A stretch of 64,000 nucleotides of DNA from an uncultured Bdellovibrionales bacterium (GCA_964421125.1 CAYQVD010000003.1:5779-69778); one strand, 5' to 3'; shown: positions 13,223 through 64,000, counted from the first letter of the stretch. The notes: generated by a model not told the origin, from the letters alone. Numbers and translations: made by a program.

Positions 13223-13718
13223 ATGGAATTATTAAGAGAGATAGATGACAATGAAAACGGAGAAATAGAAAAAGAGAGGACAGCAGCGAGGGGTGTGTTT
13301 TTTGATGATAAAGATAATATTCCAGTTTTGTTTGTTTCAAAATATAATTACCACAAGCTTCCGGGGGGGGGGCGCTAAGGATGGCGAAGATTTAAAAGAG
13401 ACACTTGATAGAGAAGTTTTTGAAGAAACCGGATGTGGAATTGAGGTGATCGGAGAAGTTGGTAAAATTATTGAGTATCGAAGAAGGTGGAACATGAAAC
13501 AAGATTCCTTTTGTTATTATGGAAAAATAATACAAAAAGGAGATACCTCATTTACAGAAAAAGAGACTGAACAAGGATTCATTTTGAAATGGATGACTTT
13601 AACTGATGCGTTAAGAGTTATCGAGAAGGATAAGCCGAAAAATTATGAAGGAAAATTGATACAGAAAAGAGATTTGATTTTTTTAAAAAAGACTAAAGAT
13701 ATCTTGACGAATAATTAA
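13223..13718 (+). pseudogene. Nudix hydrolase split by a +1 frameshift inside a G10 homopolymer (13363-13372)
   Basis: Upstream frame: MELLREIDDNENGEIEKERTAARGVFFDDKDNIPVLFVSKYNYHKLPGGGR*. Downstream frame (ORF 13293..13718) continues GGGAKDGEDLKETLDREVFEETGCGI, a perfect Nudix box. Removing one G gives the contiguous ...YHKLPGGGAKDGEDL... Nudix consensus. Confidence 0.65.
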
Positions 13719-35123: not shown

Positions 35124-35681
35124 ATGCAAAATATTAATCAAGAAAAAGAATTGAAGAAATTTTTCGATGATTATTTGTTGGATAAAAAAGTTGCCTTGAA
35201 GTTCATTAAAAGATTGATGAAAGGAAGGCTAACCAGAGATGAAAATCCAGAATCTCATTTTTCTACTTATTTTGCTGCTTATGATCTTAGTGCTAGGCAA
35301 ATTTTTATTGGTCTTCATAAAAAAGCTGGACTTTGGCTTTTTAATGGGGGACATATCGATAAGGGAGAATTAATAAGACAAACTTTAACTAGAGAAATTA
35401 ATGAGGAATGGGGGATTGATAGCAATGATCTTGAGATCAAATCACCAGCCTTTTTGACTATTACTGAAATTGATAATCCTAGCAAGCAATCTTGTAGAAT
35501 TCATTATGACTTGTGGCATTTTATATCAGTAGATAAAAATTATTTTAATCCAGAAAAGGAAAAATTACTACAAGAGTTTCATGAGGCTGGTTGGAAAAGT
35601 TTAAAAGAAGCTAAAGATTTAATAAGAGATAGAAATACCTTAAAGGCAATCGATTTTATTGAGAAAAATTATTTTGTTTAA
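35124..35681 (+). CDS. Nudix hydrolase
   Basis: Perfect Nudix box GHIDKGELIRQTLTREINEEWGI (GX5EX7REUXEEXGU). Confidence 0.7.
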   Translation: MQNINQEKELKKFFDDYLLDKKVALKFIKRLMKGRLTRDENPESHFSTYFAAYDLSARQIFIGLHKKAGLWLFNGGHIDKGELIRQTLTREINEEWGIDSNDLEIKSPAFLTITEIDNPSKQSCRIHYDLWHFISVDKNYFNPEKEKLLQEFHEAGWKSLKEAKDLIRDRNTLKAIDFIEKNYFV

Positions 35682-49068: not shown

Positions 49069-51990
49069 ATGAATTCAGTGAAAACAGCGACTCCGAAATA
49101 TAACTTTAAATCCATTGAGAAGAAATGGCAGAAATATTGGGAGGAAAACAAGACTAATCAAGTTGATTTAGAAAAGGCTGAAAATCCTTTCTATAATTTG
49201 ATGATGTTCCCATATCCTTCAGCAGAAGGTTTGCATGTTGGAAATATGTATGCTTTTACTGGAGCAGATGTCTATGGACGTTTCAAAAGACTTCAAGGGT
49301 ATGATGTTTTTGAGCCAATTGGATTAGATGGATTTGGTATTCACAGTGAAAACTATGCAATTAAGATTGGAGAACATATCAATGAATTCTCCAAGCGAAG
49401 TGAAAAAAGATTTTATGAGCAATTAAGCTTGGTCGGGAATATGTATGATTGGTCTCGAACCGTTGAGACTTATAAAACTGATTATTATAAATGGACTCAA
49501 TGGCTTTTCTTAAAAATGTTTGAAAAAGGGTTGGCTTATCAAAAGAAAGCCAAGGTTAATTGGTGTCCTTCTTGTAAGACAGTGCTTTCAGATGAACAAG
49601 TAGTCCAGGGAAAATGTGAGCGATGTGATAGTCAGGTTGAGAAAAAGGAACTAAAACAATGGTTTTTCAAGATTACTGATTATGCAGATCGGCTTCTTGA
49701 AAATTCTCAAAAAGAAGATTTTGATTGGCCAGCAGATGTAAAATTAAATCAACAAAATTGGATTGGAAAATCTGAGGGAGCCTCGATCAAATTTCCAATT
49801 TCCAATTTCCAATTTCCAAATAAATCTCAAAATTCAAATTCTCAAAAAAAGGATAAGTTTATTGAAGCTTTTACTACTAGACCAGACACTTTATTTGGGG
49901 CGACTTATATGGTGGTTGCACCAGAGCATGAAATTCTACAAAATCAAAAATCAAAAATCAAAAATCAAAAAGAGGTGTTTGAGTATGTTAAGAAATCTTT
50001 AAATAAATCGGAGCAAGAAAGAAAGGAAGAAGAAAAAACAAAGACAGGAGTTGAGTTAAAAGGAGTCAAGGCAATTAATCCAGCAACTAAGGAGGAAATT
50101 CCAGTTTGGGTGGCTGACTATGTTTTGGCTGGTTATGGAACGGGAGCGATTATGGCGGTTCCAGCGCATGATGAACGTGATTTTGAATTTGCGAAAAAGT
50201 TTGGATTGGAAATTAAAGATGTTGTTGTTCCATACATTAAAGATAATCCAAGAGATGATAAGGAAACTGAAGAAAGGGATGCTGTTGTTGGAGTTGTTAA
50301 AGATCCCAAAACTAATAAATATCTTTGTTTGAAATGGAATAAAACAGAATGGCAATCTTTTCCATCTGGAGGGACTGACGGAGATGAAATTGTGGAGGCT
50401 GGAAAGAGAGAAATAAAAGAAGAAACTGGTTATATTGATTTGGAATTTAAAAAAGAACTTGGGAGTCCAATCTTTGCAGAATTCTATCGACCCCATAAAG
50501 ATTCAAATGTAATTGCAAAATTTAGATATCTATTATTTGAACTTAATAGCGATGAACAAGTTGAAATTGAAAAAAAGGAAATGGAAATACATGAGCCTTT
50601 GTGGATTGATGAAGAAAAGATAGAATCTTTTATTAATGTTTCTAATCAGAAAATTGTTTGGGAGCGATTGACTCAAGGAATAAAATCTTTTTGTGGAGAA
50701 GGAGTCAGTATTGATTCAGATTTTTTGGATGGACTGAAAACTGCTGAAGCAAAAACTAAAATGATTGAATGGCTTGAAGAAAATAAAGTTGGTAAAAAGG
50801 CTGTTGATTATAAGTTGCGAGACTGGTGTGTTTCAAGGCAAAGATATTGGGGACCACCAATTCCAATTATTCATTGCAAAAATTGTGGAACGGTGCCAGT
50901 TCCAGAAGAAGATCTGCCAGTGGAGTTGCCACCAATGGATGATTTTTTACCAGAAGGAAAAGGAAAAAGTCCACTTGCGAAGAATGAAGAATTTGTGAAA
51001 GTGAAATGCCCAAAGTGTGGAACGGATGCAGAAAGAGAAACTGATGTTTCTGATCCATTTGTGGATTCATCTTGGTACTTTTTTCGATATCCTTCAACTG
51101 AAATTGAAGATAAGCCTTTTGATAAAGAGCGTACTAAAAAATGGTTACCAGTGGATAGCTATATTGGAGGCAAGGAACATACTGTTCTTCATTTGCTTTA
51201 TTCTCGTTTTGTGACGATGGTTTTGCACGATTTGGACTATATTGATTTTGATGAGCCTTACAAAAGATTTTTTGGGCATGGGCTTATCACCAAAGATGGA
51301 GCAAAAATGTCAAAATCAAAAGGAAATGTAGTGAATCCAGATGAGATGATTGAGAAATATGGAGCAGATACAGTGCGATTATATTTGAGATTCTTGGGAG
51401 ATTTTTCTCAAGGAGGAGATTGGCGAGATAGTGGTGCTGAAGGAATTTTCAAGTTTGTGAAAAAACTTTGGGCAACTTTCTTTGAACTTGAAAATGTTGA
51501 AGGAAATGGGGTTGAAAAAACTAATATGATTGATAAAACAATTAAAGTGATTGGTGAAGATATCGAAAGACTTTCATTTAATACTGCTGTTGCAAGATTA
51601 ATGGAGTTTGTGAATTGGATTAGAGACAATATTTCAGAGTTTGATCAATCTCAGGCAAAAAGAGTTCAAGAAGTTTTGGCGCTTGTCAGCGCTCCAATGA
51701 TGCCACATATTGCAGAAGAATTTTGGAATCAAATTGGAAACGAGGATTCAGTGTTCAATTCAAAGTGGCCGGAGTTTAATGAAAATAATATTTTGGATGA
51801 TGAAATTGAACTTGTGGTTCAAGTGAATGGAAAAGTCAGAGATCGAATTCAGTGTCCAAGAGATGTTTCCGAAAAAGATGCAAAGAAATTGGCGACAGAA
51901 AGTTTGAAAATTAAATCTTACACTGAAGGAAAAGAGATAATAAAAACAATCTATGTTCCAGGAAAGCTTGTTAATATTGTTGCCAAGTAG
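49069..51990 (+). CDS. leuS: Leucyl-tRNA synthetase with an inserted Nudix hydrolase domain (973 aa)
   Basis: PYPSAEGLHVGN (HIGH variant), ZN-1 CPSCKT...CERCD, editing-domain blocks TTRPDTLFGATYMVVAPEH and GTGAIMAVPAHDERD, KMSKSKGN. Extra ~140-aa Nudix fold (..SFPSGGTDGDEIVEAGKREIKEETGY..) between the editing domain and the RLRDW block. Confidence 0.9.
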   Translation: MNSVKTATPKYNFKSIEKKWQKYWEENKTNQVDLEKAENPFYNLMMFPYPSAEGLHVGNMYAFTGADVYGRFKRLQGYDVFEPIGLDGFGIHSENYAIKIGEHINEFSKRSEKRFYEQLSLVGNMYDWSRTVETYKTDYYKWTQWLFLKMFEKGLAYQKKAKVNWCPSCKTVLSDEQVVQGKCERCDSQVEKKELKQWFFKITDYADRLLENSQKEDFDWPADVKLNQQNWIGKSEGASIKFPISNFQFPNKSQNSNSQKKDKFIEAFTTRPDTLFGATYMVVAPEHEILQNQKSKIKNQKEVFEYVKKSLNKSEQERKEEEKTKTGVELKGVKAINPATKEEIPVWVADYVLAGYGTGAIMAVPAHDERDFEFAKKFGLEIKDVVVPYIKDNPRDDKETEERDAVVGVVKDPKTNKYLCLKWNKTEWQSFPSGGTDGDEIVEAGKREIKEETGYIDLEFKKELGSPIFAEFYRPHKDSNVIAKFRYLLFELNSDEQVEIEKKEMEIHEPLWIDEEKIESFINVSNQKIVWERLTQGIKSFCGEGVSIDSDFLDGLKTAEAKTKMIEWLEENKVGKKAVDYKLRDWCVSRQRYWGPPIPIIHCKNCGTVPVPEEDLPVELPPMDDFLPEGKGKSPLAKNEEFVKVKCPKCGTDAERETDVSDPFVDSSWYFFRYPSTEIEDKPFDKERTKKWLPVDSYIGGKEHTVLHLLYSRFVTMVLHDLDYIDFDEPYKRFFGHGLITKDGAKMSKSKGNVVNPDEMIEKYGADTVRLYLRFLGDFSQGGDWRDSGAEGIFKFVKKLWATFFELENVEGNGVEKTNMIDKTIKVIGEDIERLSFNTAVARLMEFVNWIRDNISEFDQSQAKRVQEVLALVSAPMMPHIAEEFWNQIGNEDSVFNSKWPEFNENNILDDEIELVVQVNGKVRDRIQCPRDVSEKDAKKLATESLKIKSYTEGKEIIKTIYVPGKLVNIVAK

Positions 51991-58044: not shown

Positions 58045-59124
58045 ATGAAATTTGAAAAAGAATTTCCTCTATTTAAAACTAAAATAGAAGGGGTAGATAA
58101 AAAATTTAATTTATCGGATGTTCAAGATAGAAAAAAATATTTTGAAATTAAAGCTGGAGAAGAGATTAAAAAATTAAAAAAATATTTTGAAGAAGGAAAT
58201 ACTTTTATTGCTTATCTTCTAGGAAAGAAGAATGCAGGAAAGGGGACTTATACGAAACTTTTCATGGAATTATTCGGAAAAGAAAATATTGTGCATATTT
58301 CCATTGGAGATATCGTGCGTGATGTTCATGCTGAAATGAAAGATGACGAAAAAAGAAAAGAATTGCTTGATTATTTACATGAAAATTATCGAGGATATAT
58401 TACTCCAGAAAAGGCAATTGATGCTCTTCTGGGAAAGGATCAAAAAACACTTCTTCCCAATGAGTTTATTATGGCTTTGGCAAAAAGAGAAATTGATCAA
58501 GCTGGTAAAAAGATTGTTTTTTTGGATGGATTTCCGAGAAGTTTAGATCAAGTTTCTTACGCTTTGTTTTTTAAGGAGCTTGTAGATTATAGAAATGACC
58601 CAGATATTTTTGTTGCTATTGATATTCCTGAAGCGGTCATTGATGAAAGAATGAAGTATAGGGTTGTTTGTCCAAAATGTCATACACCAAGAAATTTAAA
58701 GCTTTTTACTACTGAAAAAGTTGAGCACAACGAAGATGAGAATAAATTTGAACTCATTTGTGATAATCCTGAATGTGATAACATTAAAATGACTTCTAAA
58801 GAGGGAGACAATTTGGGAATTGAATCTATTAGAGATAGACTTGAACTTGATGATATTTTAATTAATAAAATATTTTCTTTGCATGGCGTTTCTAGAATTT
58901 TACTTCGTAATGCCGTTCCGGTTGATAAGGCAGTTGAATATTTAGACGATTATGAAATAACCCCAGAGTATTATTATGAAAAAAATGATGATACAGGGGA
59001 AATAAAAACATTAGAAAGACCTTTTATTGTTAAAGATGACGAAGGAGTTGAAGTTTATAGTTTATTGGCTCCTCCAGTAGTGCTTTCTCTTATAAAACAT
59101 TTAGTCAAAACGCTCAAACTTTAA
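58045..59124 (+). CDS. Adenylate kinase-family protein with N- and C-terminal extensions (359 aa) and a zinc-type LID
   Basis: P-loop LLGKKNAGKGTYTKLFMELFG, NMP-binding HISIGDIVR, LDGFPRSLDQ, LID CPKCH...CDNPECD. Confidence 0.6.
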   Translation: MKFEKEFPLFKTKIEGVDKKFNLSDVQDRKKYFEIKAGEEIKKLKKYFEEGNTFIAYLLGKKNAGKGTYTKLFMELFGKENIVHISIGDIVRDVHAEMKDDEKRKELLDYLHENYRGYITPEKAIDALLGKDQKTLLPNEFIMALAKREIDQAGKKIVFLDGFPRSLDQVSYALFFKELVDYRNDPDIFVAIDIPEAVIDERMKYRVVCPKCHTPRNLKLFTTEKVEHNEDENKFELICDNPECDNIKMTSKEGDNLGIESIRDRLELDDILINKIFSLHGVSRILLRNAVPVDKAVEYLDDYEITPEYYYEKNDDTGEIKTLERPFIVKDDEGVEVYSLLAPPVVLSLIKHLVKTLKL

Positions 59125-59661: not shown

Positions 59662-59868
59662 ATCTAGAATTTTTTTATATGAAAACAGCCTTAATGGGCT
59701 GTTTTTTGGCCTTTTTGAGACAATTATTAAAAAACACTTGTTAATATTGCAGCAAAAAAGTTTACACTTTTGCTACAATGTTAACAGAGTACCTTAACTG
59801 GATTCCTAATCTGCTTCGTTAAAGCTTCAGCGAGGCGAGTCAAGTTGGGAATGACAAGTGAGGGGTCT

Positions 59869-59896
59869 TGACAAGATTTTTATTGGGTATAAAATA
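59869..59896 (+). promoter_or_regulatory. Promoter P3 (GGGTC-TTGACA-16-TAAAAT) of the hrcA-grpE operon; related to P1 and P2
   Basis: The conserved GGG(G/T)CTTGACAA box; directly follows family A copy A9. Confidence 0.5.
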
Positions 59897-59901
59897 TGAA
59901 T

Positions 59902-59928
59902 TAGCAGTCTCGTGTGGTGACTGCCAGA
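59902..59928 (+). promoter_or_regulatory. CIRCE-like inverted repeat TTAGCAGTC-N9-GACTGCCAG (candidate HrcA operator)
   Basis: Consensus CIRCE is TTAGCACTC-N9-GAGTGCTAA. Left arm has 8 of 9 matches; right arm is complementary to the left for 6 of 9 positions. It lies at the predicted transcription start of hrcA. Confidence 0.45.
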
Positions 59929-59976: not shown

Positions 59977-60747
59977 ATGCTAAATGAAAGACAGGGAAAA
60001 ATTTTAAAGGCAATTGTTCAGGAATACACCGAAACTGCGAATCCGGTGAGTAGTGGGTATCTAAGAAAAAAAAATAAGCTTGATTATTCAACGGCTACGA
60101 TTCGGAGTGAAATGGCAAATCTTGAGGAAAATGGTTTTTTAATAAAAGTTTATGTTTCTTCTGGAAGAGTTCCAAGTGATATGGGCTATCGATATTTTAT
60201 TGATAATCTTATGGGAGAAAGAGATCTTTCTCGAAGTTATCAAAAGAAATTGGAATTAGAACTTTTGAAACAAAAAGCCAAGAATGCGAGATTTGAGAGA
60301 ACGACTACGAAACTTCTTTCTTCAATGTCACAATGCCTTGTTTTGAGTGGAGCGATTGAAAAGGAAGAATATTTTGATTTTGGAATGCATAATTTAATTG
60401 ATGATCCAGAATTTTCTAATATGGATGATCTTTCTCGGTTAACATCTGCGCTTGATTTGATTGATGAAAATGTTGATAAGATTCTTTCACAAGTTAAGGA
60501 AGGAGAAACAAAGATTTTTGTTGGAAAAGAAAATCCATTAAAAGAAATTCAGAATTGTTCAATGATTGTGGCTCCCTACAAACTCAAAGAAGGAAAAAGT
60601 GGATTGATTGCCATCATTGGTCCAAAGAGAATGCGTTATGAGAAGAATAAGAGTTTGATTGATTTTGTTAAGAAGGTTCTTGGAGGAAATGGAGACAAGG
60701 TCGTGATGATTATGATTGCAGGGAGTTCAATTATGACTATTATATAA
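59977..60747 (+). CDS. hrcA: Heat-inducible transcription repressor HrcA (short form)
   Basis: N-terminal winged helix LNERQGKILKAIVQEYTETANPVSSGYL typical of HrcA. Confidence 0.8.
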   Translation: MLNERQGKILKAIVQEYTETANPVSSGYLRKKNKLDYSTATIRSEMANLEENGFLIKVYVSSGRVPSDMGYRYFIDNLMGERDLSRSYQKKLELELLKQKAKNARFERTTTKLLSSMSQCLVLSGAIEKEEYFDFGMHNLIDDPEFSNMDDLSRLTSALDLIDENVDKILSQVKEGETKIFVGKENPLKEIQNCSMIVAPYKLKEGKSGLIAIIGPKRMRYEKNKSLIDFVKKVLGGNGDKVVMIMIAGSSIMTII

Positions 60748-60758
60748 TTTAAATATTT

Positions 60759-61625
60759 ATGAAGAAGCAAAAAAAACAAATGGAGTCAATGGCACGTCCA
60801 ATGGCGATTACGATTAAGGCAGTTGTTCTGAATGGAAAAGGTGAGATTCTTTTGATTAAAAGAGGATTAGAAGAATTGAATGGTGGGAAATATGATTTGC
60901 CAGGTGGCCACATTGAAGCAGGAGAGACAATTGAGGAGGCGCTTATTCGGGAAATCAAGGAGGAAACAGGACTGGATGTGGAAAAAGGAGAAATTATTGA
61001 TGCAGTTGAGTTTCCAAAAGATAATAAACTTTTCAAAGAAGAAAAAAGAGGATTGAGATATATTTGTTATACTGAAGGTAAAGAGATTCAATTAAGCGAT
61101 GAACATCACAGTGCAGATTGGTTTTCAGTGGATGATGCCATTGAGGAACTTGATGAGAAAGATGGATTTGAAAATGAAAAGAGACAAACAATCTTAAAGG
61201 CAAAAGAATTACTAGAACGAAAAAGTTCAATGGATGGATGGAAAAGAGCCCTGGCAGATTTGGAGAATTTTAAAAAAAGAACTGCTGACTCAAATGCAGA
61301 ATTTAGTCAGTATTGCATAGAAGATTTTGTGTTTGAGATTTTGCCAGTGATTGATAATTTTGATTTGTCGCTTAAACATGTTCCAGAAGGAAAAGAAAAT
61401 GACGGATGGACTACAGGAATATTGCATATCAGAAAACAACTTGCTGATGTATTAGAAGGAAAAGGAGTTGTTGAAATTAAATGTAAGTCAGGAGACAAAA
61501 TTGATGAAACAGTTCACGAGGTAATTGCAGGAAATGGAAAAAAAGGAAAAGTTAAAAAGGTTATTAAGAAAGGATATAAGCTGAAGGAAAAGGTGATTCG
61601 ACCGGTGAGTGTGGAGGGAGAATAG
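60759..61625 (+). CDS. grpE: Nudix hydrolase domain fused to GrpE nucleotide-exchange factor
   Basis: Residues ~10-145: Nudix fold with perfect box GHIEAGETIEEALIREIKEETGL. Residues ~160-288: GrpE (WKRALADLENFKKRTADSNAEF...ILPVIDNFDLSL...GVVEI...KKGYKLKEKVIRPVSV). Confidence 0.75.
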   Translation: MKKQKKQMESMARPMAITIKAVVLNGKGEILLIKRGLEELNGGKYDLPGGHIEAGETIEEALIREIKEETGLDVEKGEIIDAVEFPKDNKLFKEEKRGLRYICYTEGKEIQLSDEHHSADWFSVDDAIEELDEKDGFENEKRQTILKAKELLERKSSMDGWKRALADLENFKKRTADSNAEFSQYCIEDFVFEILPVIDNFDLSLKHVPEGKENDGWTTGILHIRKQLADVLEGKGVVEIKCKSGDKIDETVHEVIAGNGKKGKVKKVIKKGYKLKEKVIRPVSVEGE

Positions 61626-61695
61626 TTCTTTATAAAAAAACTCCCAGCGATACTGTTTCAGTAGCGCCGGGGTTTATAGGAATCAGTTGATATAA

Positions 61696-61941
61696 TTAGT
61701 AGCTATAATAACCACTTCTTCTTACGGGAGTTTTTTCAGAAAGTTTTCCAAGGGTTTGAAGCTTATTTTTAGACATTTGGATTTGTTTCAGTTCTTTGTT
61801 TTCTGATAGCAATTTACTTATTTGATTAATTGCAGAGGTAAATCTTTTTTTCGTCTTTTTGGAAAAGCCATCTTGTTTAGAAGAATATTCTATTTTTCTG
61901 AGCAGTATTTTGAGATATTTTTTAGGAACATTAATGAACAT
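61696..61941 (-). CDS. Small basic hypothetical protein (81 aa) encoded divergently between grpE and dnaK
   Basis: Strong SD (gaggaggtaacaATG on the minus strand); K/R-rich; no family recognised. Confidence 0.35.
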   Translation of the reverse strand: MFINVPKKYLKILLRKIEYSSKQDGFSKKTKKRFTSAINQISKLLSENKELKQIQMSKNKLQTLGKLSEKTPVRRSGYYSY

Positions 61942-62111: not shown

Positions 62112-64000
62112 ATGTCAAAGATTCTAGGAATTGACCTTGGAACAACAAACTCTGCGATGGCTGTCGTTGAAGGCGGAAAGCCAGAGATTGTTGAAAACAA
62201 GGAAGGTAATCGAACCACTCCATCAATGGTGGCGATTAACAAAAGTGGAGAAAGATTAGCTGGTTTGCTTGCAAAAAGACAAGCGGTGACTAATCCAGAA
62301 AGCACAATTTATTCTGCAAAGAGATTAATTGGGCGAAAGTTTTCTGATAAAGAAGTTCAGGAAGCCATGAAAACTCTTCCTTTTAAGATTAAGGAAGGAG
62401 AAAATGGTTCAGTAAATATCGTTATGAATGGCGAAGAAAAAAGACCAGCAGAAATTTCTGCTATAGTTCTTCAGAAAATGAAAGCTGATGCTGAAGAAAA
62501 ACTTGGAGAAACAATTGAAGAAGCAGTGATTACTGTTCCAGCATATTTTGATGACGCTCAAAGAAAGGCAACGAAAGATGCTGGTGAAATTGCTGGATTG
62601 AAAGTAAAGCGAATTATCAATGAGCCAACTGCAGCCGCTTTGGCTTATGGGTTTAATAAGAAAAAAGACGAAAAAATTGCCGTCTATGATCTTGGAGGTG
62701 GAACATTTGATGTTTCCATTTTAGAAGTCAGTGATGACACTGTTGAAGTGAAGTCAACTAATGGTGATACCTATCTTGGTGGAGACGACTTTGATCAAAA
62801 AATTATTGACTTTATTCTTGATGAATTCAAGAAACAGGAAGGAATTGATCTTTCAAAAGATCCGCTTGCTCTTCAAAGAATTAAAGAATCTGCTGAAAAA
62901 GCAAAGATTGAGCTTTCAACTGTTCAAGAAACTGAAGTTAATCAACCATTCATCACGACTGGTGAAGATGGACCAAAGCATCTTGTTTTGAAAATTACTC
63001 GAGCAAAACTTGAAGAACTTGTTTCTGAATTAGTCGATAAGAGTATTAAACCTTGCAAGAAAGCACTCGATGATGCTGGAATGAAAATTTCTGATATTAA
63101 TGAAGTTATCTTGGTGGGTGGAATGACTCGAATGCCGTTAGTTCAAAAGAAGGTTGAGGAATTCTTTGGAAAGAAGCCAAACGCAACCGTGAATCCAGAT
63201 GAGGTTGTAGCTCTTGGAGCTGCGATTCAAGGAGGTGTTTTACAAGGAGATGTGAAAGATGTTCTTTTGCTCGATGTGACTCCTTTGACTGTGGGGATTG
63301 AAACAATGGGATCAATTCGAACACCGCTTATCGATCGAAATACTACAATTCCAGCAAGTAAATCACAAATCTTTTCAACCGCGGCTGACAACCAACCTTC
63401 TGTTGAAATTCACGTTCTTCAAGGAGAGCGAGAAATGGCAGCTGATAACAAAACTCTTGGAAGATTCATTTTGGATGGTATTCCGCCATCTCCACGAGGA
63501 GTTCCACAAATTGAAGTTACTTTTGACATTGATGCTAATGGAATCTTGAATGTAAAAGCTCAAGATAAGGCCACTGGAAAAGAACAATCAATTCGAATTG
63601 AAGCTTCAAGTGGACTTTCTGATGAAGAAATCGAAAAGATGAAAAAAGATGCAGAAGTGCATGCTGATGAAGACAAGAAAAAGAAAGAACAAGTTGAAAT
63701 CAAGAACAACGCCGATGCTCTTGTCTTCACAACTGAAAAAGCTTTAAAAGAAGCTGGTGAAAAAGTCAGTGCTGACAAAAAGAAGCCAGTTGAAGAAAAA
63801 ATTGAAGCTTTGAAAAAAATAAAAGATGGTGATGATATTGATGCAATCAAAAAGGCTTCCGAAGAACTTTCAACAGAAGCTCAAAAGATTGGTCAAGAAC
63901 TTTATCAAGCTGCACAAAAAGAGCAAGACGCCTCTGCAAAGGATGCAAAACCCGACTCCGATAAAGCTACGACGGGCGAAGCAGAAGTGAAAGATGCAGA
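62112..64000 (+). CDS. dnaK: Chaperone DnaK (Hsp70), 3-prime end outside the window
   Basis: [22 protein letters not shown]..., [12 protein letters not shown], the full Hsp70 ATPase and substrate-binding domains; not in the ORF track because there is no stop codon in the window. Confidence 0.95.

Follow-up and report, generated by a model that had tools for sequence, protein, structure and literature searches.

Introduction

GrpE, a parallel dimer held together through long stalk helices, is among the most conserved and best studied of the co-chaperones, and in Escherichia coli its stalk is a thermosensor. In the canonical proteins of E. coli (1DKG), Thermus thermophilus (3A6M) and Geobacillus kaustophilus (4ANI), a disordered N-terminal tail is followed by the stalk helix, a helical bundle and a C-terminal beta domain. 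The N-tails of the E. coli protein bind the substrate-binding site of DnaK through an IIM motif, in a temperature-dependent manner (PMC12915176). Here, we describe a GrpE in which a folded enzyme domain of 115 residues stands in place of the disordered tail. It is encoded on the plus strand at 60759..61625 of a 64,000-nucleotide stretch of DNA from an uncultured Bdellovibrionales bacterium (GCA_964421125.1 CAYQVD010000003.1:5779-69778), which we call the window, and its added domain belongs to the Nudix family, with conserved residues suggesting an active pyrophosphohydrolase on the end of the stalk. Stalk helix, bundle and beta domain are shared with the canonical proteins, as are the LPVxDNF motif, the glycine equivalent to E. 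coli G122, a match to nearly the full Pfam profile and the position between hrcA and dnaK.

The added domain also has well-described counterparts. Small MutT-type Nudix proteins, such as those of Methanosarcina mazei (3GRN), E. coli (MutT and NudG), Bacteroides fragilis (3GWY), Aquifex aeolicus (3I7U) and T. thermophilus (Ndx1, 1VC8), as well as BdRppH (3EES), have the same fold and the same full Nudix box. They differ from the fusion protein at the C-terminal helix, which in the fusion carries a family-specific GFExEKR and continues into a 100-Å coiled-coil stalk. As it is joined to this stalk, the Nudix domain of the fusion is predicted to exist as an obligate tethered pair rather than as a free monomer or dimer.

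Fusions are known on both sides. In NadM-Nudix (a nicotinamide mononucleotide adenylyltransferase/ADP-ribose pyrophosphatase) and in MutT-ThiE-like proteins (PRK08999), a Nudix domain is likewise joined to a partner in related nucleotide metabolism, and NadM-Nudix and PRK08999-like families are among the weak NCBIfam matches of our protein. There, the Nudix domain is paired with a metabolic enzyme, whereas here its partner is a non-enzymatic co-chaperone. A precedent for a GrpE with an extra functional domain is Anabaena All4144, which a preprint presents as a helix-turn-helix domain plus GrpE (bioRxiv 10.1101/2025.04.14.648684). The domain added to All4144 is DNA-binding and non-enzymatic, and it is described in a single cyanobacterial protein and not in a large clade. 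An earlier account of the window, made from the DNA alone and called here the sequence-only reading, had judged the Nudix-GrpE combination unusual; our full-text literature searches agree, having turned up no description of it, and a 2025 review of GrpE-like factors mentions neither Nudix domains nor fusions. The named fusion proteins that we encountered in public databases are labelled simply 'nucleotide exchange factor GrpE', and such annotations may hide a second activity. To our knowledge, no catalytic domain has been described on a GrpE.

Results and discussion

The open reading frame (ORF) at 60759..61625 is a single frame of 288 amino acids (aa) plus stop, with no internal stop and no frameshift. 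Pfam finds NUDIX (PF00293) at aa 18-131 (E 5e-24, 85.2 bits against a cut-off of 21.1) followed by GrpE (PF01025) at aa 138-285 (E 2.6e-31, 108.9 bits against a cut-off of 25.8), the latter match spanning profile positions 13-161 of 165. The sequence-only reading had proposed a fusion of these two domains with a canonical Nudix box and no stop between the halves, and this is what the domain search and the uninterrupted frame show. The protein carries a complete GrpE whose disordered N-terminal tail is swapped for a compact MutT-type Nudix domain. By profile, fold and motifs, it belongs to the GrpE family and to the Nudix family alike.

We built an AlphaFold2 (AF2) model with 93 family sequences, which reached a mean predicted local distance difference test score (pLDDT) of 88.4. 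A short, poorly conserved tail at aa 1-15 (60759..60803; pLDDT 52 over aa 1-10, mean majority fraction 0.39) leads into the alpha/beta/alpha Nudix fold, which runs from E16 to H130 (60804..61148) and is recognised by PF00293 and by Foldseek matches alike. Within it, the catalytic motif or Nudix box occupies aa 50-72 (60906..60974) with the sequence GHIEAGETIEEALIREIKEETGL, a strict match to GX5EX7REUXEEXGU. A 5-residue linker separates the Nudix fold from a continuous 71-residue helix at aa 136-206 (61164..61376; pLDDT about 90), which corresponds to the long stalk helix of GrpE plus the first helix of its bundle. The remainder, aa 207-288 (61377..61622), holds the second bundle helix (216-234) and the C-terminal beta domain (strands at 237-287). 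All of these features lie on the plus strand, and the GrpE region of the model as a whole, from helix 136-206 to the last strands, has a pLDDT of 80-95.

The GrpE half aligns with residues 49-189 of E. coli GrpE (1dkg), 18-164 of the T. thermophilus protein (3a6m) and 70-209 of the G. kaustophilus protein (4ani), with E values of 2e-14 to 2e-10 for the GrpE matches in the PDB. In the family alignment, P196, D199, N200 and F201 of the LPVxDNF motif are invariant or nearly so, and the invariant G220 falls in the 1dkg alignment on position 122 of E. coli GrpE, the grpE280 site. The sequence-only reading had the Nudix domain replace both the N-terminal tail and the helix behind it. For the disordered tail this stands. 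The long stalk helix, by contrast, is kept, since the GrpE half aligns to known GrpEs including their stalk (from profile position 13 in Pfam) and the model shows helix 136-206. Hydrophobic residues with a heptad-like 3-4 spacing occupy about aa 145-171 of this helix, their onset about 8 residues past the junction between the domains. As GrpE forms a parallel dimer, two Nudix domains should come to lie next to each other at the stalk tip, and we estimate from the model that this pair would lie about 80 Å from the region of GrpE that binds the nucleotide-binding domain of DnaK (54 helical residues x 1.5 Å).

Conservation was computed on the same number of sequences, 93, with a mean column identity of 47%. 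In the Nudix half, K20, R35, D46, P48, G49, G50, E56, E65, E69, R100, E115 and W121 are invariant, and R64, E68, E84 and H116 are conserved at 90% or more. The downstream glutamate E115 and R35 are presumably at MutT-like spacing. Mean pairwise identity is 51% in the Nudix half and 51% in the GrpE half. The most conserved segment of the protein, above either domain, is the junction at aa 131-145 (61149..61193, plus strand), with the consensus L-S-E-K-D-G-F-E-x-E-K-R-E-T-I and, in the window protein, its D-G-F-E-x-E-K-R core. Here, E138 and K141 are invariant, G136, F137 and E140 are conserved at 90% or more, and the spacing from W121 to E138 is fixed at 17 or 18 residues.

Variants with two Nudix domains indicate to which half the junction belongs. 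These proteins have 445-450 aa, and one is encoded at L004 5001-6344. In two of them (P0047 and P0128), the junction motif follows the first Nudix domain and a second Nudix domain is inserted behind the motif; in five others (P0109-P0112 and P0122), an extra, slightly irregular Nudix domain precedes the standard one. Because the motif stays with the first Nudix domain in tandem variants, we regard it as part of the Nudix module, whose C-terminal helix it forms. Where there is a single Nudix domain, as in the standard form, the AF2 model has this helix pass directly into the GrpE stalk. The GFExEK motif was not seen in the free Nudix relatives, tandem ones included, among the top matches.

A search of 5.8 billion proteins yielded 417 relatives, and domain architecture was checked in the best 120 of them. 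PF00293 and PF01025 are both present in 119 of these 120, which come from NCBI, JGI, ENA and Logan assemblies and share 44-100% identity with the window protein. One (P0001), in public assemblies, is identical to it, and the other best relatives have 44-89% identity. The identical protein in public assemblies and the same two-domain architecture in the other best relatives support a continuous frame rather than an assembly error. The remaining protein of the 120 (P0118; 190 aa, GrpE only, 57% identity) was considered as an unfused sister and rejected, as its Nudix half is present and cut by a scaffold gap: a run of 10 N inside the Nudix half at L002 1313..2184 gives rise to the spurious GrpE-only call and to an 81-aa orphan gene call. 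At another locus, L009, the gene caller breaks the fusion up into a Nudix protein of 114 aa and a GrpE protein of 157 aa, which may be a decaying domain or a sequencing error. A natural two-gene split was rejected for this locus, as the halves share one frame with a TAA TAG interruption inside the Nudix domain.

The family was extended further by searching 1.84 billion representatives (50% identity) with a profile. Among the top 150 representatives are at least 64 Nudix-GrpE fusions, 74 plain GrpEs and 12 Nudix-only proteins, the last mostly tandem Nudix. Recurrence in related genomes, raised by the sequence-only reading, is thus borne out in both searches, by the best 120 relatives and by those at least 64 representatives. 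Carriers that have a name belong to Candidatus Moranbacteria/Moraniibacteriota (in one case the contig measures 1.19 Mb), Magasanikbacteria, 'Pacebacteria' and unclassified Patescibacteria. At species level, UBA2193 (locus L001) is the closest genome, at 73% identity. The order hrcA-fusion-dnaK was found in every relative looked at (L002, L003, L004 and the contig of P0104), sometimes with hsp20 in between, and these four loci represent independent genomes, as their outer neighbours differ. The fusion is old and widespread, in a large and divergent family of Patescibacteria that covers dozens of divergent uncultured lineages. We assign the bacterium of the window, too, to the small-genome Patescibacteria/CPR.

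Within this family the Nudix module is an accessory: its distribution is patchy, it is absent from close relatives and it is doubled in some proteins. A neighbour-joining tree of the GrpE domains interleaves fused and unfused proteins; it is not robust, some of its 'unfused' leaves being fragments or mislabelled, and it is too weak for counting gains and losses of the fusion. No GrpE gene adjoins that of P0176, a free tandem-Nudix relative, which is followed by a methyltransferase.

By its sequence, the Nudix half is MutT-like and not classifiable as MutT. In the PDB, it is closest by sequence to 3grn (E 6e-14), a protein of M. mazei that is related to MutT and uncharacterised, with plant NUDX1, MutT and others next. 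The Aquifex protein 3i7u matches at E 2e-5, and NUDT18, a Nudix enzyme active on nucleoside diphosphates, is also among the matches. Using Foldseek, we find a probability of 1.00 and target-normalised template modelling scores of 0.74-0.79 to 3grn, 3gwy, 3i7u and 1vc8. Here, too, 3grn comes first, accompanied at similar scores by a putative CTP pyrophosphohydrolase, the Aquifex hydrolase of diadenosine tetraphosphate (Ap4A), the Thermus diadenosine hexaphosphate (Ap6A) hydrolase Ndx1, MutT2 and BdRppH. The two hydrolases of dinucleoside polyphosphates (ApnA), 3i7u and 1vc8, take Foldseek ranks 4 and 5 and are not separated from the CTP, MutT2 and RppH enzymes. Of the NCBIfam models, MutT and NudG come nearest, both well under cut-off, the MutT equivalog level (TIGR00586/PRK10776) being missed with 53.7 bits (cut-off 97.9) and 49.4 bits (cut-off 148). 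A search by eye for specificity signatures found P86 not conserved across the family and no clear ApnA-type tyrosine. The putative enzyme probably cleaves a nucleoside tri- or polyphosphate or else a dinucleoside polyphosphate.

The reading that we favour, and to which we would give about even weight, is that of a bifunctional protein, a normal exchange factor that is also a nucleotide pyrophosphohydrolase, co-expressed with the heat-shock proteins and dimerised by the stalk. The GrpE half would serve DnaK as its ordinary factor for ADP/ATP exchange. The Nudix half, to judge from its conserved catalytic residues, would be an active Mg-dependent nucleotide pyrophosphohydrolase, whose likeliest substrates would be nucleoside tri- or polyphosphates or ApnA, aberrant or alarmone nucleotides that rise under stress. 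Both the AF2 model and the conserved junction suggest that the C-terminal helix of the Nudix domain passes straight into the stalk helix, making the connection a rigid one. The fusion might then serve the hydrolase in several ways. It would be made in step with the heat-shock chaperones, two copies of it would be kept together as neighbours on the tip of the parallel stalk, and the pair would be brought near DnaK, about 80 Å from its nucleotide cleft, at the stalk end to which the missing N-tail would have been attached.

Several observations weigh against this reading. There are genuinely unfused GrpEs, with charged tails, encoded directly after hrcA (P0171 at L005/L006 and P0169 at L008), and at L009 2554..3474 the two halves lie in one frame that has TAA TAG inside the Nudix half. 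As unfused GrpEs occur in similar loci and the L009 frame has these stops, GrpE function appears to be independent of the Nudix domain. The Nudix half stays below every NCBIfam equivalog cut-off, and its structural neighbours differ in specificity. The GrpE half does not reach the equivalog level either, its best NCBIfam model being NF010738 (81.6 bits against a cut-off of 137); this reflects divergence and not a different fold, the models being lineage-specific. The gap of about 80 Å between the Nudix site and the DnaK nucleotide cleft, an estimated distance, disfavours direct channelling of nucleotides. Lastly, as the junction motif goes with the Nudix module in tandem variants, its conservation may reflect the folding or catalysis of the Nudix domain instead of communication with GrpE.

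Another reading is that the halves are uncoupled, a housekeeping Nudix gene having been joined to grpE in a streamlined genome where the two act independently, without affecting each other at DnaK, and co-expression is harmless or convenient. We consider this unlikely, if well worth keeping in view. A patchy distribution, unfused close relatives and a decaying copy are all as it would predict, and so is a copy number that varies between one Nudix domain and two, the latter arranged in either of two ways. In the AF2 model the active site appears far from the DnaK-binding end, and Nudix domains are plentiful in this genome, the 64 kb holding four. Independent halves fit poorly, however, with a fusion kept across at least 64 clusters at 50% identity, with a linker of fixed length and a junction conserved above either domain, and with a fused gene that is always in the hrcA-dnaK slot; nor was the Nudix type that bears the junction motif found free among the top matches. 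If the halves are independent, the protein would be a clean example of streamlined genomes bundling stress functions.

A more specific proposal is that the Nudix domain is a hydrolase of ApnA or aberrant adenine nucleotides, or a hydrolysis-timed sensor, in the thermosensor stalk of GrpE, such that the heat-shock alarmone Ap4A, which is reported to bind DnaK, would be both read and erased at DnaK-GrpE. This we hold to be doubtful. Aminoacyl-tRNA synthetases produce Ap4A and Nudix enzymes break it down; it also crosslinks to DnaK, GroEL and ClpB (PMC10148737). If the hydrolase or sensor reading is true, the fusion would tie a stress nucleotide directly, at the molecular level, to Hsp70 cycling. 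The sequence-only reading had also raised a coupling of chaperone cycling to the (d)NDP-X or alarmone state, which is likewise hypothetical. If the domain acts on Ap4A or damaged adenine nucleotides, this soluble protein of 288 aa, for which clear mutants can be designed, would offer a tractable in vitro system for the old question of how stress dinucleotides affect Hsp70.

Alternatively, the Nudix domain could be mainly a nucleotide sensor or timer that caps the GrpE stalk and makes the protein a ligand-gated co-chaperone, which strikes us as quite improbable. The design of the junction speaks for it: in the AF2 model, helix is spliced to helix through a linker of 5 residues and an unbroken helix of 71 residues results, the junction is fixed in length and has the highest conservation of the protein, the heptad pattern starts right past it, and its GFExEK motif was not seen in free Nudix relatives. 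Moreover, what the Nudix domain stands in for is precisely the N-tail, which in E. coli GrpE modulates the substrate-binding domain of DnaK (PMC12915176). Set against this, fully conserved catalytic residues fit an enzyme better than a pure sensor, and close relatives manage without a Nudix domain. In P0047 and P0128, furthermore, the second Nudix domain parts the motif from GrpE, and the motif is therefore not needed beside the stalk.

It is very improbable that the Nudix domain scavenges ADP, cleaving what GrpE expels to AMP plus Pi and so rendering exchange irreversible at low ATP/ADP. A nucleotide-cleaving enzyme on a nucleotide exchange factor fits this thematically and no further, and the diphosphate-active NUDT18 is among the sequence matches; against these stand the estimated 80 Å from the Nudix domain to the DnaK-binding region of GrpE, the wastefulness of bulk ADP hydrolysis and nearest relatives that are mostly NTP or ApnA enzymes. 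That two adjacent genes were joined by a sequencing or assembly error is effectively refuted, as L009 does show in-frame stops but the architecture is continuous in 120 of the 120 top relatives once the gap in P0118 is accounted for, with a conserved junction of fixed length.

Genomic context

The window has 33% G+C and carries nearly all of its genes on one strand. The gene for the heat-shock repressor, hrcA (59977..60747, plus strand; 256 aa; PF01628, 86.8 bits), ends 11 nt before the fusion starts and is itself preceded by greA and an adenylate-kinase-like gene. Upstream of hrcA is a sigma-70-like promoter, TTGACA-16-TAAAAT (59868..59895, plus strand), which agrees with the consensus at 11 of 12 positions and is a consensus match only. 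Directly after its -10 element lies an inverted repeat, TTAGCAGTC-N9-GACTGCCAG (59901..59927, plus strand), that resembles the controlling inverted repeat of chaperone expression (CIRCE) and is a putative HrcA operator. The canonical CIRCE, TTAGCACTC-N9-GAGTGCTAA, is absent from the window at up to 3 mismatches. The variant differs from it by 4 mismatches and is unique in the window, with 0.05 occurrences expected by chance. Its arms read GCAGTC...GACTGC in place of GCACTC...GAGTGC, the change in one arm being mirrored in the other. At the same place upstream of hrcA, L002 has a near-canonical CIRCE, TTAGCAGTC-N9-GAGTGCTAA, an intermediate form in which only the left arm is changed. Heat-shock control of the fusion gene through HrcA is likely, judging from these promoter elements.

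The 5' part of dnaK follows at 62112..64000 (plus strand) and runs off the end of the window; it was assigned from its translation and from the Hsp70 gene at the same position in relatives. In the 486-bp spacer between grpE and dnaK, a hairpin with an A-run and a weak U-run as flanks (61642..61672; minimum free energy -17.3 kcal/mol, z = -2.4 against shuffles) is a possible bidirectional terminator, one that the terminator scan did not call. Behind it lies a small converging ORF of 81 aa on the minus strand (61696..61941), with GGAGG as Shine-Dalgarno sequence upstream of its ATG and a promoter-like site at 62024-61996. The only family match of this ORF is a sub-threshold one to RHH_3 (ribbon-helix-helix, E 0.008). 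Since the hairpin and the minus-strand ORF separate grpE from dnaK, dnaK is probably a separate transcription unit here. The hrcA-grpE-dnaK operon of the sequence-only reading thus holds as an order of genes, while a transcript shared with dnaK is doubtful. In relatives, the position of the 81-aa ORF is taken by hsp20 or by nothing. Rfam and tRNA scans of the spacers gave nothing above threshold.

The fusion is one of four Nudix domains in the 64 kb, none of which is a recent duplicate of another. Two are stand-alone genes with strict Nudix boxes, at 13293..13718 (141 aa) and 35124..35681 (185 aa). The other is part of leucyl-tRNA synthetase (LeuRS; 49069..51990, 973 aa), in which PF00293 matches aa 403-518 with 32 bits, directly after the editing domain, the insert spanning about 50275..50622. 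Its Nudix box, GGTDGDEIVEAGKREIKEETG, lacks one residue of the canonical spacing from the first Glu to RE, and its similarity to the Nudix domain of the GrpE fusion is at the level of the box only. The sole database relative of the insert is a free-standing Nudix protein of 161 aa (42% identity), and the insertion therefore looks private to this organism. From the two cases, the sequence-only reading had deduced a lineage-specific habit of grafting Nudix domains onto core proteins. The LeuRS insert is there as described; a habit common to both is not supported, given the box-level similarity, the private nature of the insert and the age and spread of the GrpE fusion. Both Nudix fusions are on proteins connected with Ap4A, LeuRS being a source of it and the DnaK machinery a reported target, a link that is speculative.

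Further upstream, the greA-hrcA spacer contains a 19-nt inverted repeat (59739..59786; 89% complementary, 10-nt loop), situated between a terminator-like hairpin at 59681-59706 and the hrcA promoter and matching no Rfam family at threshold. The adenylate-kinase-like protein encoded just upstream of greA-hrcA-grpE (58045..59124, 359 aa) is atypical and enlarged. Of the adenylate kinase profile, its residues 132-255 cover just positions 50-123 of 151, and it has about 60 extra N-terminal residues and CxxC...CxxxxC motifs.

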